From: Acidobacteriota bacterium
GTDB taxonomy: Bacteria; Acidobacteriota; Vicinamibacteria; Vicinamibacterales; SCN-69-37
Direction: 5' to 3'
DNA: 51,409 bases
Assembly: GCA_024640135.1 (NCBI GenBank)
Contig: JAHEFO010000001.1
Location: forward strand, 10,035-61,443
The notes below the pieces were generated by a model, which did not search any database, was not told where the DNA came from, and worked only from the letters and a program-made list of their open reading frames with translations. A program made the position numbers and the translations under genes. Position 1 is the stretch's first letter, and the number at the start of each line of letters is the position of its first letter. Positions 6,836 through 26,151 of this stretch are shown here, piece by piece.

Positions 6836-7822
6836 TATCCCGGAGTCCGCGTTCCCGCACGAGTTGACGTAGAAGCAGCCGCCCGGCGCCTGGCGGGTGT
6901 CCGTCCTGGCGGGCTGGGGCGGGTTTTCCGTTCGCCAATGCTCCGATCGGCTTGGTTGTCAGACCGTGCGAAGGCCGACGTGTGGCTCAAGCTCGAGTCC
7001 GTCCAGCCCGGTGCGTCATTCAAGATCCGGGGCGCGCTCAATGCGCTCTCAGTGCTGCACTCCGAACATCCGGAGGTCACCGCCATTGTCACAGCATCGG
7101 CGGGCAATCACGGTGCGGCGATGGCCATTGCGGCGCGCCACTTCGGCCTGCGCCTGCGCGTACACCTCTCCGTGGCAGCACCGGCTGCCAAGCGGAACGC
7201 CCTGCTGGCACAAGGCGCGGAGCTGGTCGAGGCCGACGACTATGACGGGGCGGAGGAGGCCGCTCGCGCGGATGCCGCCGCGAGTGGCGCGCCCTACATT
7301 TCGCCGTACAACCATCCGGACGTGATCGCCGGTGCCGGCACGGTCGCCCTCGAGATGCTCGAAGACGCCCCCTCACTCTCCACGATCATCGTTCCCCTCG
7401 GCGGTGGCGGATTGCTGGCGGGCACCGCCCTGGTTGCCCGAGGCCACACGGCACACGTGCGAGTCATCGGAGCGGAAGCGGAGAGTTCGCCGGTCTTCAC
7501 GACGGCGCTGGCCGCAGGCGAAATCACGAAAGTGAAGGTCGAAACCACACTGGCGGATGGGCTGGCTGGCAATATGGAGCCAGGGAGTCAGACGTTCGCT
7601 CTGGTTCGAGATCTGGTTGATGCCGTGGCCCTTGTGGCCGAATCGTCGATCGAAACAGCCATGCGAAACCTGGTTTACCGTGAGCGCCTGGTCGCCGAGG
7701 GCGCCGGCGCGGCGGCGGTTGCAGCCCTCCTGCAGGGTGGGCTCGACCTTCAGGGCGGGCCGGTTGGCGTGATGGTCACCGGCCGGAACGTGGACGAAAC
7801 TGTTCTCAAGCGAATTCTGTAA
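6827..7822 (+). CDS. PLP-dependent threonine/serine dehydratase (short form, no ACT domain)
   Basis: Start at MSHYPGV. PLP-lysine motif SFKIRGA, SAGNHG and a GGGGL glycine loop are present. Confidence 0.85.
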   Translation: MSHYPGVRVPARVDVEAAARRLAGVRPGGLGRVFRSPMLRSAWLSDRAKADVWLKLESVQPGASFKIRGALNALSVLHSEHPEVTAIVTASAGNHGAAMAIAARHFGLRLRVHLSVAAPAAKRNALLAQGAELVEADDYDGAEEAARADAAASGAPYISPYNHPDVIAGAGTVALEMLEDAPSLSTIIVPLGGGGLLAGTALVARGHTAHVRVIGAEAESSPVFTTALAAGEITKVKVETTLADGLAGNMEPGSQTFALVRDLVDAVALVAESSIETAMRNLVYRERLVAEGAGAAAVAALLQGGLDLQGGPVGVMVTGRNVDETVLKRIL

Positions 7823-15392: not shown

Positions 15393-15692
15393 CTACTTAC
15401 GTGGAAGTACGGCGTCCTTGAGCTGTTTGGCGATCCGAGCCTTCACGACGGTCTTGGCTGGGATCTTGATCGTCTCGCCTGTTGCCGGGTTGCGGCCATC
15501 ACGCGCCTTGCGATTCTGCACAACCAGCTTGCACATACCTGGAACGGAAAACTCGCCTGCCCGCTTCAGTTCCTTCTCGGACAACACGAGCAACTCCTCA
15601 AAGAGGTCCCGCACCATCGTGCGCTTCAAATCAAACTTGTCTGCGAAGTGCGCGAACAACTCCATCTTGCCCATGCGTCTGGCGTCTGCCAT
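15393..15692 (-). CDS. HU-family nucleoid-associated DNA-binding protein
   Basis: 99 aa with the HU/IHF arm motif RKARDGRNPATGETIKIPA. GGAG lies 8 nt upstream of the ATG. Alternative starts exist at MGKMELF and MELF. Confidence 0.85.
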   Translation of the reverse strand: MADARRMGKMELFAHFADKFDLKRTMVRDLFEELLVLSEKELKRAGEFSVPGMCKLVVQNRKARDGRNPATGETIKIPAKTVVKARIAKQLKDAVLPRK

Positions 15693-15747
15693 CGTTTTCT
15701 CCAGTCCTAAATCCGGGAATCAGCTCCCTTGCACGATCGCGGCGGGT

Positions 15748-15778
15748 ATCGTAGCCCTCCCCCCCCGGTCAGTGTCAA
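15748..15778 (-). promoter_or_regulatory. Candidate sigma70-type promoter of the HU gene (TTGACA-N19-TACGAT)
   Basis: On the minus strand there is a perfect -35 TTGACA (15778-15773) and TACGAT (15753-15748). The 19-nt spacer contains a G8 run (C8 on the plus strand, 15759-15766). Confidence 0.35.
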
Positions 15779-15788
15779 TCTTTCCGTC

Positions 15789-15794
15789 TACAAT
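15789..15794 (+). promoter_or_regulatory. Candidate -10 box TACAAT, 6 nt upstream of the queF ATG
   Basis: The spacing predicts a leaderless queF transcript. No SD is present. Confidence 0.4.
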
Positions 15795-15800
15795 ACCAGC

Positions 15801-16145
15801 ATGAGCGCCTCGCTCGACACGTTTCCGAATCCTCGTCCCGAGCGAGATTACCAGATTGACATACGCTGCCCGGAGTTCACGTCAATGTGCCCGAAGACGG
15901 GGTTGCCGGACTTTGGCGAAATCCGAATCCAGTATGTGCCGGACCAGGTCTGCCTCGAACTCAAGGCCCTGAAGTACTACATGCTTGACTATCGGAACCA
16001 GGGCATCTTCTACGAGGCGGCGACGAACAAGATCCTGGACGACCTCGTCAAGGCCTGCCAGCCACGCCAAATGACGGTCACAGGCGCATTTACGGCCCGC
16101 GGCGGCATCACGACCACGGTCGTCGCCTCTCACGAGTCCCGCTGA
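15801..16145 (+). CDS. queF: NADPH-dependent 7-cyano-7-deazaguanine reductase (type I QueF)
   Basis: 114 aa from MSASLDTF. Has the catalytic Cys context CPKTGLPDF and the QueF motif ELKALKYY. Confidence 0.9.
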
Positions 16146-16255
16146 GGCTGGCCTCTCCCTTGCTTTCCTAGAGGCGCGGCGTCGCGTACCCGGCGGTATC
16201 GACAAGCCCGGGTGGCAGATTCCGCAATACCCCGCGCCTCGGGGAGTGGCAGAAG

Positions 16256-18502
16256 GTGCCAGACGAGGACAGCCGGCGGAACGAGCCTGCCAGAGTCAGC
16301 CCGGGAGAATTTGTCTGGATTCGCCGCCAACTCTGGCGAGTCCGGAGCGTACACACCGGGGCAGGCCTCACGCGCCTCCTGGTCGAGGCGGCCGCAGCAA
16401 ACGAGAACCGGAATTTTCTCTTGCCGGCCGAGCGGTGGCGCCCCGACCGCGCCCGACCCTCACGAAGGGTGTCTTCCCGCCGCGCGCTGGCCTGGCTCAT
16501 CTCATGGACGGCCCGCACCTCTCCCGCCTTCACGCCGTCGGCAATCGTCGGAGCCCACACCCTGCTGCTGGCCTATCAACTCGAGCCGGCGCTGGCCGTC
16601 CTGGCGGGTACGCGCCGCATTCTCATCGCTGACGGAGTGGGCCTTGGCAAGACCGTTCAGGCCGCCCTCATCATCGCGGAGATGACGCAACGGCGCGCTG
16701 ACGCCCGAGTCCTCGTGCTGGTGCCCGCACCACTCGTCGCGCAGTGGTCCGACGAACTGAGGACGCGCTTCGGCATCGCCGCCAGCACGGCGAACGCCGC
16801 GGAGTTTACGCGGCTTCGGTCCGGCCGGCCCTACATGAAGAATCCCTGGCAGGGCCCCGGGGTCTGGCTCGCGTCCCCCGACTACCTCAAGCAACTCCAC
16901 GTTCTGGAAGCCATGCCGGACACGCCGTTTGATCTCGTGGTGATTGACGAGGCGCACATCCTGTCCGGCAAGTCGCAGCGGCGCGCGGCCATCCACGCTC
17001 TGGCTCGCTCGGCGCGACACGTCGTCATGCTCACGGCCACGCCGCACGATGGTGACCACGCCAGATTCACGCGTCTCGTGTCGCTGGGCGCCACCGGCTC
17101 GAAGGCCGACGCGCTGACCACCTTCCGGCGTACTCGGACGACACCCGCTCGACACATCCGCAGACTTGACGTGAACGCGGGACCGGGTCTGTCGCGCGTT
17201 CTGGAAGCCATCGATGCGTTCGAGCGTTCCGTGCGCGCCGCGCCTCCCGCCGCGCTCAATCTCATCTGCGCCGTGTTCCGGAAACGAGCGCTCTCGTCGA
17301 TGGCGGCGCTCCACGCCTCCCTCGACCGCCGCATGTCGCTGATCAACGACAAGAACAACCACGAAGGCACAGATGACTGGGAACAGCTTGACTTCTTTTC
17401 GGCCGACCTGGTGCCTGATCACGAGTGGGCGGCGCTGAACGGAGACCTGGGGCTTGCACCCGCACGCGAACGGAACTGGCTGGCACGACTTCGGAACGCG
17501 GCGTCGCCAGAGTCGGCCAATCGTGATCCAAAACTGACCCGGTTGCGCCGGCTGCTGCGCCGCGCGAACGAGCCCGTGGTGGTGTTCACGGAGTATCGCG
17601 ACACGCTGCTGGCCGTGGCAACCGCGCTGGCAACCCAGCGTGACATTGCCGTATTGCACGGGGGGCTCACATCGGCACAGCAGGTCCAGGCGCTCCGCGC
17701 CTTCGTCCATGGTCACGCGGACACGTTGCTGACCACCGACGTGGCGAGCCAGGGGATCAACCTGCAGCGCCGCGCGCGCTGGGTGATCAACTTCGACCTG
17801 CCGTGGACTCCCGCACGACTCGAGCAGCGCGCCGGCCGGGTCGACCGAATCGGTCAAACGCGGCTCGTGCATGTGACGTCGCTCGGCGTTCGCCACACGG
17901 CGGAGGCTGCTCAGCGCGCGCGGGTTGCCGCGCGGCAGGACGCGAGCAACGCGGCGGCGCTGGTCACGTGCACCCGATGGACACGCGCGGCCGACAGCCT
18001 TGCGCGCCAGTTCGCCCGCCAGCGGGCGGTGGCGACCCTCTGGCGCGGTCCGGATCCGATCGCGCTGCCTCGCGCCCGCGTGCCCCAGCAACTGATCCAG
18101 CGCATCTGCGGCACCGCTGTTCCACGGGTCACCATCGTCGAGATTCCCCTCGTCAACAAGACGGGCGATGTCCTCGAGCGCCACGCCGGTTGGGTGGCGT
18201 CAAACACTCAGTCCGACACTCCGGGCCACCCACTGCCGACGGCTCTGGCGCGCCGTGCGCTGACGCTCGGTGCCCGCGCCCGGCGGCGCCTGGCGCGAGC
18301 AGAGGCGGCACTGCCGATCGGTCCAGCCATCGGACCCAGGCAGCCCGGACTATTCGACCCGCGCGGCGTCCCGGGACTGCCCAGGGAGGATGACGGTCCG
18401 CGCAGGTCGGCCACCGGGAACGCGCCTGCCGAGGCCGCAGCCGACACGGACGTCTCCATCGGCGCCCTGCGTCCCCTGGTGATCCTCGAGGCGCAGTCGT
18501 GA
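16256..18502 (+). CDS. SNF2/DEAH-family helicase-translocase
   Basis: Motif I DGVGLGKT, motif II VIDEAHIL, motif III LTATPHDG and a helicase-C region with QRAGRVDRIGQ are present. The first ~100 aa and last ~190 aa are unassigned. GTG start with GGGGAG 9 nt upstream. The stop overlaps the next start (GTGA). Confidence 0.85.
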   Translation: MPDEDSRRNEPARVSPGEFVWIRRQLWRVRSVHTGAGLTRLLVEAAAANENRNFLLPAERWRPDRARPSRRVSSRRALAWLISWTARTSPAFTPSAIVGAHTLLLAYQLEPALAVLAGTRRILIADGVGLGKTVQAALIIAEMTQRRADARVLVLVPAPLVAQWSDELRTRFGIAASTANAAEFTRLRSGRPYMKNPWQGPGVWLASPDYLKQLHVLEAMPDTPFDLVVIDEAHILSGKSQRRAAIHALARSARHVVMLTATPHDGDHARFTRLVSLGATGSKADALTTFRRTRTTPARHIRRLDVNAGPGLSRVLEAIDAFERSVRAAPPAALNLICAVFRKRALSSMAALHASLDRRMSLINDKNNHEGTDDWEQLDFFSADLVPDHEWAALNGDLGLAPARERNWLARLRNAASPESANRDPKLTRLRRLLRRANEPVVVFTEYRDTLLAVATALATQRDIAVLHGGLTSAQQVQALRAFVHGHADTLLTTDVASQGINLQRRARWVINFDLPWTPARLEQRAGRVDRIGQTRLVHVTSLGVRHTAEAAQRARVAARQDASNAAALVTCTRWTRAADSLARQFARQRAVATLWRGPDPIALPRARVPQQLIQRICGTAVPRVTIVEIPLVNKTGDVLERHAGWVASNTQSDTPGHPLPTALARRALTLGARARRRLARAEAALPIGPAIGPRQPGLFDPRGVPGLPREDDGPRRSATGNAPAEAAADTDVSIGALRPLVILEAQS

Positions 18503-21500
18503 CGTTGCCCGGCATCGGCGGCCTGTTACTGCCCGCGCGCTTTCTGGCGGAGCGCGTCGCGCCTGGCACGACGTGCGACCTGCGTTCACAGCCACAGTGG
18601 GAACGCTGGTGGAGACACGTCTCGCACACCTGCGGCCCCGCCACTGGCGTGCGGACGCTCTTTGACCTGGTCGCAATGCCCCTGTTCGGCCGCCTCGGCT
18701 TCCGCGCCGCGCACCCGCGATTCCTGCCCGCATCAGCCACTGCCTCACTGCGGACACCTGGTGGGCAAACGGTCGCGCTCATCGTGCGGCCATGGGCCGA
18801 ACACCGGCCCACGGTGTGGCGCGAAGCCACAGTCGCGGCGCGGAATGTTGGCGCGGCATGGTGCTGCGTGTTCGCGCCACCGGTTCTGTCGATCGTGCCG
18901 GCGGCCGGACACGCCGTGCGGCGCAGCCTGGACTTCATGCTGCCTGCCGCCGTCGAACCGGCATCGCTGGGCGTCTTTCTCTCGCTCGCCGGCGCCGTGT
19001 CCTTTGATACCGACGCGCTGGAGCACTGGCTCCAACTGGCAGTATCTGACCAGGCGCGCGTGCGCGGCGATCTGCAGCAGGGAGTGGTGGACGCGCTGGC
19101 GGGATTCACCACGGTGCTGGCACGCACGGCCGGCACGGCGCCAGGCGACGAGGCCCTGACGCTCGTGTATCGAATCCTGTTTCTGCTGTTCGCGGAATCG
19201 CGCGACCTGGTGCCCCGGCATCATCCGATATATCGCGAGACATACACTCTCTCGTCGCTATGTGAGGAAGCCCTGCGAGACGCGCATGCGCGCGGTCTGT
19301 GGGACGGGTTGGCGGCAGTCAGTCGCCTGTCGCGCCGGGGCGGACGCGTGGACACACTGCAGGTGTTCCCGTTCAACGGCCACTTGTTCTCGTCACAGGC
19401 CGCGCCGTCACTCGAATCCGCGCTGGGCGGAGGCCGTCCCTCTCCTGCCAGCGACGCGCGCGACGCCGCTGCCGGCCGCGCGCTCGTGGCGCTGGGCACC
19501 AGGCGCGAACCGGCCGGCCGCATCGCAATCAGCTATGCCGACCTGGGCGTCGAGGAACTCGGCCGCATCTACGAGCGCGTCCTCGACGTCGATCCGGCGC
19601 CCGGCACAAAGCCTTATCCCCCCAGGGGCAGGGGCCACAGTACCCGCCGCAAAGACACGGGAACTTTCTACACGCCACAGGCCCTCGCGGACTTCGTGGT
19701 TCATCGCACACTCGCGCCACTGGTTGAGGGAATACCGGCCGATCGCGTTCTCGACTTGCGAGTGGTCGACCCAGCCATGGGATCCGGCGCCTTCCTCGTC
19801 GCAGCGCTCCGGTATCTGAGCGCCATATATGAGCGCGCACTGATTGATGAGGGCCGATGTCGTTCATCGGACATTTCCGATGTCAATCGCGCCGAGTTCC
19901 GGCGACTCATCGCGCAGCAGTGCCTCTTTGGCGTGGATACCAATCCGGTTGCAGTCCAGGTGGCGCGGCTGTCGTTATGGCTGGCCACGCTTGCGCACTC
20001 CAAGCCGCTGAGTTTTCTCGATCATCACCTGCGAACGGGCAACAGCCTGATCGGCGCCTCGCCAGGAGACCTCCAACGTTCCCGTGGCGCGACCACGCGC
20101 GAATTGCCGCTGTTTGACAGGAACAGCACACGCCTGGAGATCATGCTGCGTCGCGTGGTCCCGGCCCTTGCGGACATCGGGCACCAGCCCGACGACTCGG
20201 TTACCGACGTGCGCCGGAAGGAGGTCGCGTGGGCAGCGCTCCGCGACGACTCGCACCCTCTGTCGCGCTGGCGGCTGGCCGTCAGCCTCTGGTGTGCCCA
20301 GTGGCTGTGGCCGGCGGGCGATCGCCGGCCATCCTCAGCGGAGATTCGTTCCGGCGCAGACGCGCTGCTTCACGGCCAGAGTCAATTGAGTGCCGCTGAG
20401 GCCCGCCGTCTTGCGGCGGCGGCCGAGCGCACCACACAGGAACATCAATGCTTCCACTGGCCCCTCGAGTTTCCCGAGGTCTTCTTCGACGTCACCGGCG
20501 GCCGCCGCCGTGATGCCGGCTTCGACGCCGTACTCGGGAACCCGCCATGGGATGTGGTCCGTCGAGGCAACACGTCAGGCCGCCAGAGGCAGGCGCGCGA
20601 CCCGCTCGTGACCTTCGTGCGCGAATCCGGCCTGTTTCCGCTCTGTCAACGCGGTCATCTCAACCTGTATCAACCATTCGTCGAACGCAGTCTCTCCCTG
20701 GTGCGCCCCGGAGGACGTGTCGGGCTCATCGTCCCCTGGGGCTTCGCGGTAGACGACGGCGCGACGGCACTCCGATCTGCCCTCGTGGACGCCGGAGCGC
20801 TCGACACCATCGTCGGATTCGACAACGCGCGCGGCCTGTTTCCCATTCACCGGGGCGTGCGATTCGCCGTCGTCATCGCCGCGCCAGGGGGCCGGCCGCG
20901 CGACATTCGAGCCCGGTTCGGTGTCGCCACCACCAACACGATTGAAGAGATGACCGCAGCGCACGACGAGCCGCTGCCACTTCAACTCGAGACCGGATTC
21001 GTCGCCAGCGTTGGCGGCCGGACCCGGCGTCTTCCAGACCTTCGCGGCCCCGGCGACGCGGAGTGGTTAGCGGCAGTCATTGGCGCCCACCCTCCGTTGG
21101 GCGCGGCTGACGGATGGCAGGCGCGTTTCAGTCGCGAACTGAATGCCACGGACGACAAGAAACTATTCACCGCTCGACGCAACGGGCACACCTTGCCAGT
21201 GGCCGACGGCAAACACATCGAGCCCTTCCTCGCACATCCGGATCGGAGCAAGCGTTTCATTCTCGCTTCGGCCGCACGACGTCGATTCCCTGACGATCGA
21301 TTCACCCGGCCGCGCCTCGTCTATCGCGACGTCTCGGGAGTGGGTAATCAGTTCACGCTGATCGCCGCCGTGATGCCTGCCGGTGTCGTCACCACGCACA
21401 CGTTGTTCTGTCTACGCAATGACCTGCCAGTGGAACAGCAGCACTTTCTCTGCGGCGTCTTGAACTCGAACCTGCTCAATCGCGTTGTGCGGCTGCTGAT

Positions 21501-21708
21501 GGGGAGCCATGTGACGACGAGTCTGATGGAACAACTGCCGGTGCCGCGCTGGACCAACTCGGCAGCTCATCGTCGAGTCGCCGCCTTGGCGGCGAGACTG
21601 TCTGCGCCCGGACGGTCTGCGACGAGGAACCGCTTGACGGGGCGGCTGAATTCCCAGATAGAGGATCTGTATGGCGTATACATGTGTACCAAACAAGCCC
21701 GTTATTGA
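18499..21708 (+). CDS. Large gamma-class N6-adenine DNA methyltransferase (Eco57I / type IIG / BREX-PglX-like architecture)
   Basis: SAM motif I is VVDPAMGSGAFLV. The helical insert LFGVDTNPVAVQVARLSLWLATLAHSKPLSFLDHHLRTGNSLIG is present. Motif IV is GNPPWD. The C-terminal target-recognition-like domain carries LLNRVVRLL and QLPVP. The first ~330 aa are unassigned. 1069 aa in total. Confidence 0.85.
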   Translation: MTLPGIGGLLLPARFLAERVAPGTTCDLRSQPQWERWWRHVSHTCGPATGVRTLFDLVAMPLFGRLGFRAAHPRFLPASATASLRTPGGQTVALIVRPWAEHRPTVWREATVAARNVGAAWCCVFAPPVLSIVPAAGHAVRRSLDFMLPAAVEPASLGVFLSLAGAVSFDTDALEHWLQLAVSDQARVRGDLQQGVVDALAGFTTVLARTAGTAPGDEALTLVYRILFLLFAESRDLVPRHHPIYRETYTLSSLCEEALRDAHARGLWDGLAAVSRLSRRGGRVDTLQVFPFNGHLFSSQAAPSLESALGGGRPSPASDARDAAAGRALVALGTRREPAGRIAISYADLGVEELGRIYERVLDVDPAPGTKPYPPRGRGHSTRRKDTGTFYTPQALADFVVHRTLAPLVEGIPADRVLDLRVVDPAMGSGAFLVAALRYLSAIYERALIDEGRCRSSDISDVNRAEFRRLIAQQCLFGVDTNPVAVQVARLSLWLATLAHSKPLSFLDHHLRTGNSLIGASPGDLQRSRGATTRELPLFDRNSTRLEIMLRRVVPALADIGHQPDDSVTDVRRKEVAWAALRDDSHPLSRWRLAVSLWCAQWLWPAGDRRPSSAEIRSGADALLHGQSQLSAAEARRLAAAAERTTQEHQCFHWPLEFPEVFFDVTGGRRRDAGFDAVLGNPPWDVVRRGNTSGRQRQARDPLVTFVRESGLFPLCQRGHLNLYQPFVERSLSLVRPGGRVGLIVPWGFAVDDGATALRSALVDAGALDTIVGFDNARGLFPIHRGVRFAVVIAAPGGRPRDIRARFGVATTNTIEEMTAAHDEPLPLQLETGFVASVGGRTRRLPDLRGPGDAEWLAAVIGAHPPLGAADGWQARFSRELNATDDKKLFTARRNGHTLPVADGKHIEPFLAHPDRSKRFILASAARRRFPDDRFTRPRLVYRDVSGVGNQFTLIAAVMPAGVVTTHTLFCLRNDLPVEQQHFLCGVLNSNLLNRVVRLLMGSHVTTSLMEQLPVPRWTNSAAHRRVAALAARLSAPGRSATRNRLTGRLNSQIEDLYGVYMCTKQARY

Positions 21709-21711
21709 TGT

Positions 21712-21855
21712 TTTGACTGCGACCCGGCTGATCGCCTGCTGGTTGCCGCGGCGCGGGTTCTGAACTTGACGCTGGTGAAAGCCGACGAACAGCTCGTCTC
21801 CGCGAAGCAGGTGCCGACACTCGCGAATCGGTCGTGGGCTGCGGTTGCGCTATAG
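21712..21855 (+). pseudogene. 3' remnant of a VapC/PIN-domain toxin gene
   Basis: The frame reads CFDCDPADRLLVAAARVLNLTLVKADEQLVSAKQVPTLANRS...*. This matches the C-terminal DP(F)DRLL(I/V)A..A...LTLVT.D block of PIN toxins, including the last conserved Asp. There is an in-frame TGA at 21706-21708, no start codon and no antitoxin gene. Confidence 0.55.
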
Positions 21856-21856
21856 T
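21851..21856 (+). promoter_or_regulatory. Candidate -10 box TATAGT, 8 nt upstream of the GTG of the FeS-NrfD gene
   Basis: The hexamer overlaps the stop codon of the PIN remnant. There is no SD before the GTG at 21865. Confidence 0.35.
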
Positions 21857-21864
21857 CGCACCGC

Positions 21865-23388
21865 GTGCCCAACTACGGCTTCGTCATCGATCTGAAAAAG
21901 TGCATCGGCTGCCACGCCTGCACCATCGCCTGCAAGGCCGAGCACGACATCCCGGTGGGCGTCAACCGGTGTTGGGTCAAGACGGTTGAGAAGGGCCGTT
22001 TCCCGGACGCCCAGCGGTTGTTCCTGCCGGTGCTGTGCAACCAGTGCGCGGACGCGCCGTGCATGAACATCTGCCCGACCAGCGCACTCTTCCGGCGCCA
22101 CGATGGCATCGTCGATCTGCATGGAGACGCGTGCATTGGATGCAAAGCGTGCATGGCCGCGTGTCCGTACGACCAACTGTTCATCGATCCCAATACCCGC
22201 ACTGCGGAGAAGTGCAACTTCTGCGCAAACCGGATCGAGAACCAGCTGGAACCGGCGTGCGTGAGTGTCTGTCCCACTGAGTGCCGCATCTTCGGCGACC
22301 TGGACGATTCGACCGCTGCCGTCGCGCAGATTGTGCAGCGTGAAGCCTTCACGGTCCGCAAACCTGAAAAGGGCACGGGACCGAAGGTGTTCTACCTGAG
22401 TGCCGACGACAGCATCATTCAACCCGAAATCGCGTCACGGCCGTTCATCTTCAAGGAGGGCGGTGTGCACTTGCGTCCCCTGGGCTCGAGGGACCCTGAC
22501 CCGCAGTCGCCCGGTGATCCGCGTGTGGACTACGACGTGCCACACAAGAAGGCCTGGGGCATTGACCTGGTGCTGTATCTCTTGACGAAGGGCATTTCGA
22601 CCGGCGCCTTGTTCCTGGGCGCGGTCCTCTGGTTGATGGGCGACCGATCCGCGTTGTCCGGACTGGCGGCGCCCCTGGTCTCGTCGGTGTTCTCCGCACT
22701 GACCGCGCTCGTCCTGGTGATGGACCTGGAGCGGCCGGAACGCTTCTATTACATCCTCACGCGGCCCAACTGGACATCGTGGATGGCACGCGGCGCATTC
22801 ATCCTGGCGGCGCATGGCGTGATTGGCGGCCTCTGGGCACTGGCGTGGTTCCTGGACCTCTCCGGTCTCATTACAATCTGCGCCCTGCTGACTCTGCCGG
22901 TGGCCGTGGGCGCGACTGGTTACACAGGACTGCTCTTCGCGCAGGGCCTGGCGCGCGATCTGTGGCAGGGGCCGCACGCGACCATCGATCTCATCGCTCA
23001 GGCCGCCATGGAAGGAAGCGCGGCGCTGCTCATTGCGGTACTGTTCACGACGGTCGACGCGTGGGTGCTGGAGACGCTCGGGTGGACGCTGGCGGGCGCA
23101 ACGACACTCCATCTCATGATCCTGGTTTCCGAGAATCTGCTGGCGCCCAGTCCCACCCTGCACCACGAGCTGGCCGTACAGGCCATTCGGGAGGGGGCGT
23201 ACGCGCGGATGTTCTGGCTTGGCGCGGTCGGCCTCGGCGGACTGGTGCCGCTGGTACTCTTTGCCATTGCCGTGGCTACGGGATTCTCAATGGTCGCCTT
23301 GATTCCGATGGCGCTGGTCGCGCTGGCCGGCAGCCTGGCCTGGGAGTACATCTGGGTGGAGGCAGGACAATGCGTGCCCATTTCGTAA
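21865..23388 (+). CDS. Fused 4Fe-4S ferredoxin (DmsB/PsrB-like) and NrfD/PsrC-type membrane anchor
   Basis: The N-terminal ~190 aa carries four Cys clusters (CIGCHACTIAC, CNQCADAPC, CIGCKACMAAC, CNFC...CVSVCP). This is followed by about 8 hydrophobic helices typical of NrfD-family quinol-interacting subunits. Confidence 0.85.
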   Translation: MPNYGFVIDLKKCIGCHACTIACKAEHDIPVGVNRCWVKTVEKGRFPDAQRLFLPVLCNQCADAPCMNICPTSALFRRHDGIVDLHGDACIGCKACMAACPYDQLFIDPNTRTAEKCNFCANRIENQLEPACVSVCPTECRIFGDLDDSTAAVAQIVQREAFTVRKPEKGTGPKVFYLSADDSIIQPEIASRPFIFKEGGVHLRPLGSRDPDPQSPGDPRVDYDVPHKKAWGIDLVLYLLTKGISTGALFLGAVLWLMGDRSALSGLAAPLVSSVFSALTALVLVMDLERPERFYYILTRPNWTSWMARGAFILAAHGVIGGLWALAWFLDLSGLITICALLTLPVAVGATGYTGLLFAQGLARDLWQGPHATIDLIAQAAMEGSAALLIAVLFTTVDAWVLETLGWTLAGATTLHLMILVSENLLAPSPTLHHELAVQAIREGAYARMFWLGAVGLGGLVPLVLFAIAVATGFSMVALIPMALVALAGSLAWEYIWVEAGQCVPIS

Positions 23389-23454
23389 TGAGTCAGCGAC
23401 GGACATGGGGAAATGAGGAATTGGTGGCAATGACGGGAATGGGGCAACTGGGTA

Positions 23455-26151
23455 ATGGCTGAATTCCGATCGCACCCGCCGGTGTCCGACTGGGACCACT
23501 ACGTCGACTTCGAATCGACGAGTTGGCCGAAGAAGGACCGCCGCAACTACTGGATCATTCCCAGCATCTGCTTCAACTGCGAGTCCGGGTGCGGCATCCT
23601 GGCGTACGTCGACAAGGACACGCTCGATGTTCGCAAGATCGAGGGCAATCCACTCCACCCGGGCAGCCGCGGTCGCACGTGTGCCAAGGGCGTGGTCACG
23701 CCCAATCAACTCGAAGATCCAGACCGCATCCTGCGTCCCCTCAAGCGCGTCGGCAAGCGCGGTAGCGGCGAGTGGGCCCCGGTCAGTTGGGACGAGGCCC
23801 TGGAGGACATCGGCGGCCGGATTCGGAAGGCGATTCTGGAAGACCGCCGGCGCGAGGTGATGTACCACGTGGGGCGTCCCGGCGAAGACGGCTACGTCAA
23901 CCGTGTCCTCCAGGCGTGGGGTCTCGACAGCCATAACAGTCACACCAACGTGTGTTCGTCCTCGGCACGCCTCGGGCATTTCTTGTGGACCGGGGCGGAT
24001 CGGCCGTCGCCGGATTATGCCCACGCGCGTACGATTCTCCTGCTTTCGTCACACCTCGAATCGGGTCACTACTTCAACCCTCACGCACAGCGCATCATTG
24101 AAGGCAAGACCAGGGGCGCCAAGCTCATCGTCATGGACCCGCGGATGTCGAACACGTCGGCAAAGGCAGATGTGTGGATGCCGACCAAACCGGGCACGGA
24201 AGCCGCAATCCTGCTGGCCATCGCAAGACACCTGATTGACACAGGGAGGTACAACCGGGAGTTCGTCAGGCGCTGGGTGAACTGGGAAACATACCTGACC
24301 ACAAGTCGGCCCGATCTGCCGGCAACGTTTGAGGCGTTTGAAGCGGCGTTGAAGGAAGAGTACGAGGTCTTCACGCCGGAGTACGCCGAGATCGAATCCG
24401 GTGTGCCGGCCCACAAGATCCTGGAGGCCGCCGAGGCGGTCGCTGACGCCGGCACGTCGTTCTGCACGCACAGTTGGCGTTCGGCTGCCGCAGGCCATCT
24501 CTGGGGATGGCAAATCACGCGTTGCCTGTACTTCCTCGTGGTGCTGATGGGCGCCGTCGGCGAGAAGGGGGGCGTGAACCTGCACGCCACCAACAAGTTC
24601 GTGCCGAAGCATCCGAATCCGCCGCCCGCTCCCGAGTACTGGAACGAGCTGTTGTTCCCGAAAGAATTCCCCCTCGCCTTTCACGAGATGAGTTTCCTGC
24701 TGCCGCACTTCCTCAAGGAAGGCCGGGGCAAGGTCGATGTGTATTTCACCCGGGTCTACAACCCGCTGTGGACCAATCCTGACGGCTTCTCGTGGATGGA
24801 AATGCTCGAAGACGAGTCGAAGATCGGATTGCACATCGCGCTGACGCCGATGTGGAGCGAAACGGCGTGGTTCGCGGACTACGTGCTCCCCATGGGCCTT
24901 GGCACCGAGCGGCACGACACCATGAGCCAGGAGACCCATGCCGGGCGTTGGCTCGGGTTCCGGCAACCCGTCAAGCGCGTGGCACTCGAGAAGAAGGGGA
25001 CGCCGGTCGGGACGACGCATGAGGCCAACCCTGGCGAAGTGTGGGAGGAGTCCGAGTTCTGGATCGCGCTCTCCTGGAAGATCGATCCCGATGGAACTCT
25101 CGGCATCCGCAAGTACTTCGAGTCACCCTACCGGGCGGGCGAGCAGATCACAGTGGACGAGTACTACGGCTGGATGTTCGAGAACTCCGTGCCGGGCTTG
25201 CCCGAAGCCGCAAGTGCGGAGGATCTGACACCGCTGCAGTACATGCGCAAGTACGGCGTCTTCAAGGTTGACGAAGTGGCGTACAGCAAGGCGCATGAGC
25301 AACCTGTGGAGGCCGGGGGCGTGGAAATCGATGGCGGCCGGCTTGCCGGTTTCAATACGCCATCCCGCAAGCTCGAATTCTTCTCGCCGACGCTGGCAGA
25401 GTGGGGTTGGCCCGAACACGCCATCCCGAGGTACGTGCCCGGGCAGGTGTACTGGCGCGACCTCGATCCATCAACGAACGAGTTCGACCTGTTGCCCAAC
25501 TTCCGGCTGCCGACGCTGATTCACACCAGAGCGCCCGTGAAATGGTTGTATGAAATCGCCCACAGCAATCCCTTGTGGATCGCTACCGGCGACGCGGAGC
25601 GATTGGGCATCGCCATGGGCGATCTGGTGAAGGTGAACACGGGCATCGGCTTCTTTGTCACGCGGGCGTGGGTCACCGAAGGGATCCGTCCCGGCGTCGT
25701 CGCCATGTCCCACCACCTGGGCCGGTGGCGACTGGACGAAGACCAGGGTGGAGCGCGCAATGCGACCGCGCTCGTGCGCATTGCCCGCGGCACCGACGGC
25801 CAGTACGAGATGCGACAGGTGCACGCCGCCCAGCCGTTCAAGAGCGGCGACGCCGACAGCGCCCGCGTCTGGTGGACCGAAATCGGCGTGCATCAGAACC
25901 TGACGTTCCCGGTGCAGCCGGATCCGGTCAGCGGAATGCACTGCTGGCACCAGCGGGTCCGGTTGGAGAAGGCCGGACCGGATGATTCGTACGGCGACAT
26001 CATGGTGGACACCGCGAAGTCACATCAGCTGTACTTGGAGTGGATGGCGAAGACGCGGCCGGCGCCCGGCCCCGACGGCACCAGGCGACCGCTCTGGTTC
26101 GACCGACCCTTGAAGCCCGTGCGGGCGGCCTACGACGTCCCCAAGGTCTGA
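23455..26151 (+). CDS. Molybdopterin (bis-MGD) oxidoreductase catalytic subunit, no Tat signal
   Basis: 898 aa. FS0 cluster motif CFNCESGCG...C(AKG) is present, with HTNVCSSSARLG as the candidate Mo-ligand region. Overall layout matches the DMSO-reductase family. Confidence 0.9.
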   Translation: MAEFRSHPPVSDWDHYVDFESTSWPKKDRRNYWIIPSICFNCESGCGILAYVDKDTLDVRKIEGNPLHPGSRGRTCAKGVVTPNQLEDPDRILRPLKRVGKRGSGEWAPVSWDEALEDIGGRIRKAILEDRRREVMYHVGRPGEDGYVNRVLQAWGLDSHNSHTNVCSSSARLGHFLWTGADRPSPDYAHARTILLLSSHLESGHYFNPHAQRIIEGKTRGAKLIVMDPRMSNTSAKADVWMPTKPGTEAAILLAIARHLIDTGRYNREFVRRWVNWETYLTTSRPDLPATFEAFEAALKEEYEVFTPEYAEIESGVPAHKILEAAEAVADAGTSFCTHSWRSAAAGHLWGWQITRCLYFLVVLMGAVGEKGGVNLHATNKFVPKHPNPPPAPEYWNELLFPKEFPLAFHEMSFLLPHFLKEGRGKVDVYFTRVYNPLWTNPDGFSWMEMLEDESKIGLHIALTPMWSETAWFADYVLPMGLGTERHDTMSQETHAGRWLGFRQPVKRVALEKKGTPVGTTHEANPGEVWEESEFWIALSWKIDPDGTLGIRKYFESPYRAGEQITVDEYYGWMFENSVPGLPEAASAEDLTPLQYMRKYGVFKVDEVAYSKAHEQPVEAGGVEIDGGRLAGFNTPSRKLEFFSPTLAEWGWPEHAIPRYVPGQVYWRDLDPSTNEFDLLPNFRLPTLIHTRAPVKWLYEIAHSNPLWIATGDAERLGIAMGDLVKVNTGIGFFVTRAWVTEGIRPGVVAMSHHLGRWRLDEDQGGARNATALVRIARGTDGQYEMRQVHAAQPFKSGDADSARVWWTEIGVHQNLTFPVQPDPVSGMHCWHQRVRLEKAGPDDSYGDIMVDTAKSHQLYLEWMAKTRPAPGPDGTRRPLWFDRPLKPVRAAYDVPKV

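Follow-up and report, generated by a model that had tools for sequence, protein, structure and literature searches.

The window analysed here is a 51,409-nt (51-kb) stretch of contig JAHEFO010000001.1 from a bacterium of the Vicinamibacterales (Acidobacteriota), and all window coordinates are counted from its first letter. It contains two adjacent, co-oriented genes, encoding an SNF2/RapA-like ATPase (referred to below as the helicase) and a large N6-adenine DNA methyltransferase (the methylase). Throughout the Vicinamibacterales, the pair has been passed on vertically at a constant position among housekeeping genes, with occasional loss, and is not part of an island. The two genes and their start signals are as follows.

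16241..16246, plus strand: Shine-Dalgarno (SD)-like GGGGAG, 9 nt 5′ of the helicase GTG start (read from the sequence)
16256..18502, plus strand: SNF2/RapA-like ATPase gene (the helicase, DrmD/ArmA-like), GTG start, 748 residues (open reading frame, Pfam and PADLOC)
18499..18502, plus strand: GTGA start/stop overlap of the helicase and methylase genes (translational coupling), read from the open reading frames
18499..21708, plus strand: gamma-class N6-adenine DNA methyltransferase gene with a DrmMI/ArmB/PglX/MmeI-like architecture, GTG start, 1069 residues (Pfam and PADLOC)

Both open reading frames (ORFs) and the GTGA overlap had been reported at exactly these positions in an earlier first-pass annotation, and the motifs that it quoted were all recovered in the translations: DGVGLGKT, DEAH, TATP and QRAGRVDRIGQ in the helicase, and DPAMGSGAF, LFGVDTNP...LSFLDHHLRTGNSLIG and GNPPW in the methylase. 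The annotated flanks place the pair between queF and a molybdoenzyme operon, as had been stated, and the proposed SD-type starts were borne out, with GGGGAG preceding the helicase GTG and a second SD-like element, GAGG at about 18488–18491, preceding that of the methylase. An identical 4-nt overlap was found in the relatives L001, L002, L005, L006 and L008 (related loci are cited by such labels where they must be told apart). A promoter and terminator scan of 15600–22000 gave counts no better than those of shuffled sequence.

Full-length methylase homologues, 50–73% identical, were found to be abundant in metagenomes, where they are labelled Acidobacteria or Vicinamibacterales, and the same was true of the helicase. 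When neighbourhoods were scanned with each GTDB species represented by a single genome, 80 loci were recovered, every one from an Acidobacteriota/Vicinamibacterales metagenome-assembled genome (MAG), a few of these being mislabelled. The SNF2 gene lies directly 5′ of the methylase gene in every GTDB locus with sufficient upstream DNA, and HU–queF and/or the FeS–molybdopterin oxidoreductase/TauE–ApbA genes border the pair in many of these loci. In every long contig examined, the gene order was lplA–E2–lpdA–HU–queF–[helicase–methylase]–(variable small genes)–FeS/NrfD–Mo-oxidoreductase–…–TauE–ApbA. This synteny is kept at 39–73% methylase identity to the window, a range over which LpdA is 68–88% and the molybdopterin oxidoreductase 72–92% identical. 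Two irregular cases were encountered among the relatives. Two contigs of MAG SMAG_U1252 (L023 and L081) each carry a methylase of this family, 42% and 45% identical to that of the window, which may reflect a second paralogue or mixed strains; in L001 (7807–10004, GCA_016716905.1), the helicase is called as two ORFs of 452 and 280 residues, which points to a frameshift pseudogene or else to an error in the assembly, and the methylase is intact.

Methylase distances were found to correlate with those of QueF (Mantel r = 0.70), the molybdopterin oxidoreductase (0.86), TauE (0.80) and ApbA (0.80; all p = 0.001), values equal in strength to those among the housekeeping genes themselves (r = 0.65–0.87). 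Helicase and methylase co-evolve (r = 0.88, p = 0.001), and the pair's residence in Vicinamibacterales chromosomes predates the split between lineages whose methylases today share about 40% identity. For the closest pairs, dN/dS was 0.12–0.28 in both genes, with dS near saturation in several pairs. The segment of the recognition region spanning methylase residues 801–930 was the most variable folded part by per-region identity, yet its divergence is proportional to that of the catalytic core (r = 0.72), and no domain swapping or diversifying pattern was detected in the recognition region. Neither plasmids nor viral contigs yielded a close relative in searches of PLSDB and IMG/VR; the plasmid and viral relatives are distant, only about 30% identical, and do not carry the N-terminal domain of the methylase. 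Neither vertical inheritance at a fixed locus nor ARMADA as a second close relative of the pair had been mentioned in the first-pass annotation.

The surroundings of the pair were searched for the partners with which such genes are usually found. No DrmA/B/C, PLD, PglZ, YprA or nuclease gene was present in the window or in more than 80 orthologous loci, including flanks of ±8–10 kb, and when all ORFs of about 87 related loci were clustered, no conserved third gene emerged, the sole conserved partners being the housekeeping neighbours. Orthologous pairs are thus not always embedded in complete DISARM, BREX or Type ISP loci, an outcome that had been considered when the module was first described, and only distant (about 31% identical) plasmid relatives adjoin a YprA/DruE-like helicase. 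The description of a two-gene SNF2 and N6-adenine-methylase unit without a recognisable active nuclease has therefore held up.

In at least 12 relatives, queF and the helicase gene are separated by an Smr ORF of about 90 residues (L006 at 7248–7514; L018, L031, L053, L068, L071, L074, L075, L086, L153, L173 and others). It is absent from the window, and in two sites that lack the pair (L117 and L135, see below) it is gone as well. Smr was considered as a hidden nuclease partner of the window module and rejected, as it is absent here and often stays with queF when other genes intervene; in some lineages, it is a possible nicking partner.

The 748-residue helicase comprises the following features in addition to its ATPase core.

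16256..16570, plus strand: N-terminal domain (residues 1–105), with a conserved, strand-rich PGDxVWIRRRxWRV...TFLxPxDR motif (alignment) and no family match
17936..18499, plus strand: C-terminal family-specific domain (residues 561–748; AlphaFold2 [AF2] model)
18341..18358, plus strand: QPGLFD peptide (residues 696–701; alignment), in a low-confidence loop of the AF2 model

Pfam assigned SNF2-rel_dom and Helicase_C domains to this protein, and the nearest solved structure to its ATPase is RapA. DrmD was the best PADLOC match (3.9e-65, in two partial stretches), followed by BrxHII, HmaA and DpdE; the PADLOC profiles have no curated cut-off. The NCBIfam equivalog model DISARM_DrmD scored 244.5 bits against a cut-off of 610. 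The GKT, DEAH and QRxGRxxR motifs were invariant in an alignment of 34 helicase homologues. Residues 1–105 and 560–748 matched no family in Pfam, PADLOC or NCBIfam, and sequence and profile searches of the PDB matched only the methylase and ATPase cores, the methylase matches being to distant enzymes. An AF2 model of residues 545–748 (mean pLDDT, the model's per-residue confidence score, 82.6) predicts two long helices and a small beta-sheet that is completed by the extreme C-terminus. A Foldseek search of the PDB with this model gave no match at E ≤ 0.001, nuclease-like or other.

The methylase could be divided into four regions.

18499..18948, plus strand: N-terminal alpha/beta domain (residues 1–150), family-specific, with a predicted PD-(D/E)xK-like topology that appears catalytically degenerate (AF2, conservation)
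18949..19638, plus strand: helical spacer (residues 151–380), with YRxLFLLFAESR and FNGxLF motifs, common to DrmMI and Type IIG/IIL enzymes
19639..20898, plus strand: catalytic methyltransferase domain (residues 381–800), with motif I DPAMGSGAF at 19768–19794 and motif IV NPPW at 20539–20550
20899..21705, plus strand: target-recognition region (residues 801–1069), with a variable part (residues 801–930) and a conserved TaqI_C-like part (residues 931–1030), recognised by a weak Pfam TaqI_C match and a PADLOC Type IIG C-terminal match

In Pfam, Eco57I, N6_Mtase and MmeI_Mtase matched residues 382–778, and TaqI_C matched weakly at residues 932–1001. The best PADLOC match was DrmMI (PDLC02643, 1.9e-86), and Type IIG enzymes and PglX were also matched. 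DPxMGSGAF and NPPW were invariant across the methylase alignments, and the catalytic domain contains a variable insert of about 125 residues (526–650). PADLOC DrmMI and REase_MTase_IIG profiles extend into the spacer, matching from residue 154 or 214 to 364 (219–364 for the DrmMI profiles), and Pfam MmeI_hel matches it weakly in 9 of 40 homologues. Because the spacer matches DrmMI, Type IIG and MmeI_hel profiles, the methylase has a Type IIL/PglX layout, in which the alpha/beta domain occupies the nuclease position. The protein is intact up to a conserved LNxxxxxLY near the C-terminus, and its last ~10 codons deviate from those of its relatives.

The N-terminal domain was examined most closely for a nuclease. 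An AF2 model of residues 1–385 (pLDDT 87) predicts an alpha/beta domain at residues 1–150, ordered helix–strand–strand–strand–helix–strand, followed by a helical domain. Foldseek found no PDB match to this model at E ≤ 0.001, and the best match in BFVD (E 6.8e-3, probability 1.0, template-modelling score 0.32) was a phage protein that bears the annotation Type I restriction R-protein N-terminal domain. Among 68 family members, only G8, G46, P47, R52, P61, L66 and W121 are conserved at ≥95%, and no conserved acidic or lysine residue is present in the strands expected to carry D…(D/E)xK. Residues 1–150 matched no Pfam, PADLOC or NCBIfam family. The domain is the fastest-evolving folded region of the protein (mean pairwise distance 0.68), and it occurs in only 466 clusters among 1.84 billion proteins, always at the N-terminus of proteins of about 1060–1220 residues, or in fragments. 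It is read as a degenerate, non-catalytic nuclease-like domain on the strength of the predicted fold. The earlier observation that the pair has no recognisable nuclease is thus upheld, with no PD-(D/E)xK, HNH or PLD family found by Pfam, PADLOC or NCBIfam; a canonical nuclease domain, which would have changed the classification of the pair, was not found, the methylase N-terminus having at best a nuclease-like fold without conserved catalytic residues.

Comparison with characterized systems places the pair closest to the helicase–methylase half of class 1 DISARM and of ARMADA. DrmD and DrmMI, the relatives named in the first-pass annotation, were the top PADLOC matches; since the DrmD and BREX scores fall far under the NCBIfam cut-offs, the window proteins are homologues of these families, not equivalogs. 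As in class 1 DISARM, the helicase gene precedes the methylase gene, and the profiles of DrmMI, which is likewise adjacent to its helicase, match both the spacer and the catalytic domain. Unlike that system, the pair is accompanied by no DrmA (helicase), DrmB (DUF1998) or DrmC (PLD), its proteins are shorter (748 residues against a profile of ~1040 positions, and 1069 against ~1347), the N-domain of its methylase and the C-domain of its helicase are family-specific, and it is chromosomal, vertically inherited and outside islands.

ARMADA types I and II consist of ArmA (a BrxHII/RapA-like helicase), ArmB (a PglX-like methylase), ArmC (a YprA helicase with a Vsr nuclease) and, in some cases, ArmD (bioRxiv 10.1101/2025.09.15.676423). 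All four genes were reported to be essential for defence, which is abolished by armC deletion, and the system is typically carried on mobile elements or in defence islands; armB varies most among E. coli strains (same source). The window pair shares the adjacent, co-oriented arrangement of ArmA- and ArmB-type genes. It differs from ARMADA in having no ArmC or ArmD in the window or the orthologous loci, in its fixed syntenic housekeeping site with no integrase or tRNA gene nearby, and in the absence of the family from plasmid and viral collections; in contrast to the hypervariable armB of E. coli, its recognition region diverges in a clock-like manner. The distant plasmid relatives from Thermus and Nostoc are arranged as SNF2 helicase, methylase, a small gene in some cases, and a DruE/YprA-like helicase of ~1800 residues (1838 in Thermus). 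BLASTP against the Thermus plasmid pair gave 31% identity for the ATPase core (1e-45) and 31% for methylase residues 174–1015 (2e-89). In the Thermus locus, the SNF2 helicase and methylase genes are separated by an inserted gene for an NYN-domain (RNase-like) protein (L099, 8673–9386), and in the Nostoc locus, a 414-residue protein without a PADLOC match lies between the methylase and the YprA/DruE-like helicase.

The remaining systems were found to be more remote. Type IIL/IIG enzymes such as MmeI resemble the window methylase in combining an N-terminal alpha/beta domain, a helical spacer, a gamma-class NPPW methylase and a recognition domain in one chain, whereas the window methylase has no catalytic D...(D/E)xK and is paired obligatorily with a separate SNF2 ATPase. 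Type ISP enzymes (LlaGI, LlaBIII) likewise join an ATP-driven motor to an Eco57I-type methylase and a recognition domain, but the window pair consists of two polypeptides, has an SNF2/RapA motor and lacks an Mrr nuclease, and the methylase matched the LlaGI/LlaBIII profiles only in motif I (E 0.1–0.4). BREX has a PglX-like large methylase and, in type 3, the SNF2 helicase BrxHII, and a similar non-cleaving action is conceivable; however, no PglZ, BrxC, BrxA or BrxB gene was found in the window or related loci, and NCBIfam BREX methylase models scored 28–56 bits against cut-offs of 400–900. HmaA of the Hma system gave a partial match to the helicase (7.5e-45), and no adjacent HmaC ATPase gene was found in the window or related loci. 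A link to Dpd through the neighbouring queF was considered and rejected: there is no DpdA/TGT-like gene, DpdE matched partially at 173 bits against a cut-off of 500, and unrelated genes separate queF from the helicase gene in many loci. Dam and CcrM are lineage-conserved orphan DNA methyltransferases. The pair resembles them in its vertical inheritance, lack of a cognate nuclease, purifying selection and housekeeping surroundings, and differs from them in that it is not near-universal in its clade, contains a much larger, Type IIL-like enzyme and, unlike Dam and CcrM, is SNF2-coupled.

The tail of the helicase contains a short conserved peptide, QPGLFD. Within an otherwise unalignable stretch, Q696, L699 and F700 are invariant or nearly so, and Q-x-[GSA]-L-F was present in 43 of 54 helicases from GTDB loci, most of the exceptions being truncated ORFs; Q..LF arises in 0.8% of shuffles of the helicase C-terminal sequence. 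The peptide is housed in a loop at about residues 686–732, with a mean pLDDT of 50–71 over residues 685–724 (residues 141–180 of the model fragment). It resembles the bacterial beta-clamp-binding consensus QL(S/D)LF (PMC9690074), a resemblance that is a lead, not a demonstration, and the peptide could equally dock on the methylase. Similar peptides were found in the ArmA-like plasmid helicases of Thermus (QASLFD, residues 642–647; L099, 5808–8564) and Nostoc (QLSLFD, residues 658–663; L100, 6533–9379), in both cases 76–77 residues past motif VI, and clamp docking, if real, could therefore also be an unrecognised feature of the ARMADA family. Five DrmD-like helicases on viral contigs lack a peptide of this kind, and a literature search for clamp-binding motifs in DrmD/ArmA-type helicases returned nothing. 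If QxGLF(D) is a beta-sliding-clamp motif, it might tether the translocase–methylase behind the replication fork, where the complex would restore a hemimethylated or asymmetric adenine mark on new DNA. Such a replication-coupled maintenance methylation machine, which would parallel in bacteria the eukaryotic DNMT1–PCNA system and its SNF2 remodellers DDM1/LSH, is a long shot. The conserved QxGLF peptide nevertheless offers a concrete, testable link to the replication clamp.

The genes next to the pair are listed below.

15729–16145: queF, upstream flank of the helicase gene
21719..21855, plus strand: 3′ remnant of a PIN (VapC-type) toxin gene, outside the module (blastn and translation against intact Phd–PIN pairs in L001 and L002)
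21865–23388: fused 4Fe-4S/NrfD gene, downstream flank of the methylase gene
23455–26151: molybdopterin oxidoreductase gene, after the 4Fe-4S/NrfD gene

The toxin-gene remnant that had been noted after the methylase gene proved real. It aligns to the last ~40 PIN codons of intact toxins in two syntenic relatives, and its original stop codon is lost. Compared with L001 and L002, a deletion scar at 21709–21860 marks the loss of a Phd/YefM-type antitoxin and the first ~90 PIN codons. A small variable region is present downstream of the methylase gene in L001–L006, L026, L047, L073, L075 and L083, where it contains Phd–PIN pairs, a protein of ~135 residues with a GxxExxY-type motif (named from sequence), hypothetical proteins of ~190 residues, or nothing. 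As for the flanking genes, the mechanically called queF ORF is probably 24 codons too long, as homologues begin at a Met equivalent to window position 15801. The downstream flank at 21865–26151 encodes an unusual fusion of a 4Fe-4S dicluster and an NrfD membrane protein (507 residues), followed by the 898-residue molybdopterin oxidoreductase, a pair that is 72–92% identical across the order. In L004 (13378/13388) and L008 (15369/15379), only 10 bp separate the methylase stop codon from the start of the Fe-S/NrfD–molybdopterin oxidoreductase genes, which have the same orientation, and this short gap suggests possible co-transcription of the pair with the respiratory operon in some relatives. 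The remaining window genes are those of ordinary metabolism (lipoamide dehydrogenase/E2, HU, MFS transporters, glycine-cleavage T protein, hisG/hisD, ApbA and an amino-acid permease), and neither tRNA genes nor an integrase were found in the window.

Taken with a probability of about 0.5, the best explanation of these findings is that the pair is a nuclease-free, SNF2-assisted adenine-methylation module, long resident in the chromosome, with its ancestry in the helicase–methylase half of class 1 DISARM (DrmD/DrmMI) and ARMADA (ArmA/ArmB). The methylase would probably mark one adenine of a short, probably asymmetric motif on its own chromosome, and the SNF2 partner probably binds the methylase. 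ATP-driven translocation of the SNF2 protein on double-stranded DNA would bring the methylase to its sites or control its access to them, and docking of the complex on a further protein, possibly the sliding clamp, may be mediated by the QxGLF peptide of the helicase tail. Because no cutting enzyme is present, the output would most likely be DNA marking and not restriction; the mark could serve an epigenetic or self-identity role and might be read by a factor encoded elsewhere.

Several observations weigh against a resident cellular module, and most of them also bear on the alternative that the pair is an autonomous two-gene defence against phages or plasmids that acts without cleavage, in a BREX-like manner, with the methylase marking self and the SNF2 translocase, alone or with the methylase, recognising unmethylated DNA and blocking its replication or transcription. 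In an unbiased metagenome sample of HU–queF loci, the helicase gene was found in 18 of 36 with at least 1.2 kb of downstream sequence, and two empty sites were identified, one in which queF is followed by TauE–ApbA (L117) and one in which the next genes are those found on the far side of the pair in L055 and L061 (L135). Since it is not universal and two sites are empty, the pair is dispensable, like accessory defence genes. Both proteins diverge about 2–2.5 times faster than QueF and the molybdopterin oxidoreductase, toxin–antitoxin and GxxExxY genes turn over beside the pair as they do in defence hotspots, and we infer its function from homology and evolution. All close named relatives are moreover defence components (DrmD/DrmMI, BrxHII, HmaA, DpdE and PglX), and in Serratia class 1 DISARM, deletion of drmD and drmMI nearly abolished protection against one phage. 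On the other side, it is unusual for a defence system to be passed on vertically throughout an order at a single housekeeping site, free of mobile-element genes and absent from plasmids and viruses; the recognition domain is neither swapped nor hypervariable, unlike E. coli armB; the ARMADA pair alone is insufficient, as armC deletion abolishes defence; and in some genomes the respiratory operon begins 10 bp from the methylase stop codon. Autonomous defence is accordingly regarded as doubtful, and it stays alive because the pair is dispensable and fast-evolving, its relatives are all defence genes, and toxin–antitoxin genes turn over beside it. Other helicase-negative HU–queF loci are interrupted by a tad-pilus-like block, beyond which the pair may be located. 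In L126 (4500–11500) and L171 (10700–17600), this is a minus-strand block after HU–queF–Smr, with a CpaE/ParA-like ATPase and ORFs that are tad-pilus-sized, as judged by size and strand. In other lineages, the same ParA-like gene lies between queF and the helicase gene, and the ancestral block has therefore been rearranged.

The requirement of ARMADA for all of its components, including the YprA helicase-nuclease, means that a trans-encoded partner elsewhere in the genome could exist, a further point against a self-sufficient module. In that case, the pair would represent one half of a DISARM/ARMADA-type system that has been split, with its YprA-like helicase-nuclease effector acting in trans. 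This is in keeping with the need of both ARMADA and DISARM for a YprA-type component and with the linkage of the distant Thermus and Nostoc plasmid relatives to a DruE/YprA-like helicase of ~1800 residues, but no YprA-like gene was found in the window or within ±8–10 kb of the orthologous pairs, and defence systems are normally contiguous operons, which makes a split system improbable. A split Type ISP or Type IIG restriction enzyme, with methylase residues 1–150 as a cryptic active PD-(D/E)xK nuclease, is less probable still. The N-domain does sit at the nuclease position of MmeI-type enzymes, ahead of the same helical spacer, with a helix-strand-strand-strand-helix-strand topology and a Type I restriction R-protein N-terminal domain as its best structural match; against this, its candidate catalytic strands carry no conserved acidic or lysine residue, it has neither a Pfam or PADLOC nuclease family nor a significant PDB match, and it is the least conserved folded region. 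The canonical form of this explanation was rejected, there being no active nuclease. Decay of a larger defence system into an inactive remnant, also put forward in the first-pass annotation, could be imagined from the decayed toxin–antitoxin module next to the pair and from the helicase of L001 that is split into two ORFs. It was not borne out, and is barely credible, because both genes are intact, with invariant catalytic motifs, are constrained (dN/dS 0.12–0.28), and are ancient as a two-gene unit, this state having been kept across 39–73% methylase identity.

Between a cellular and a defensive role for the resident methylation module, the evolutionary pattern leans towards a non-defence, epigenetic role over minimal defence, because there is no effector, the recognition region is stable, the context is one of housekeeping genes, and the gap to the respiratory operon is only 10 bp in some genomes. 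What is already known is the helicase–methylase module of DISARM and ARMADA; what is new here is its stand-alone, vertically inherited, nuclease-free form. A literature search for Vicinamibacterales methylomes returned nothing. SNF2–methylase pairs have been thought to act only with a YprA helicase-nuclease in mobile DISARM and ARMADA systems, whereas in this order of abundant soil bacteria, such a pair persists alone under purifying selection. Provided that the pair methylates the chromosome, it would clearly exemplify a defence-type modification module retained for a cellular role in epigenetic or self-marking, and it would provide a natural minimal system in which to study what an SNF2 protein contributes to a methylase, a question shared with DISARM, ARMADA and BREX type 3.

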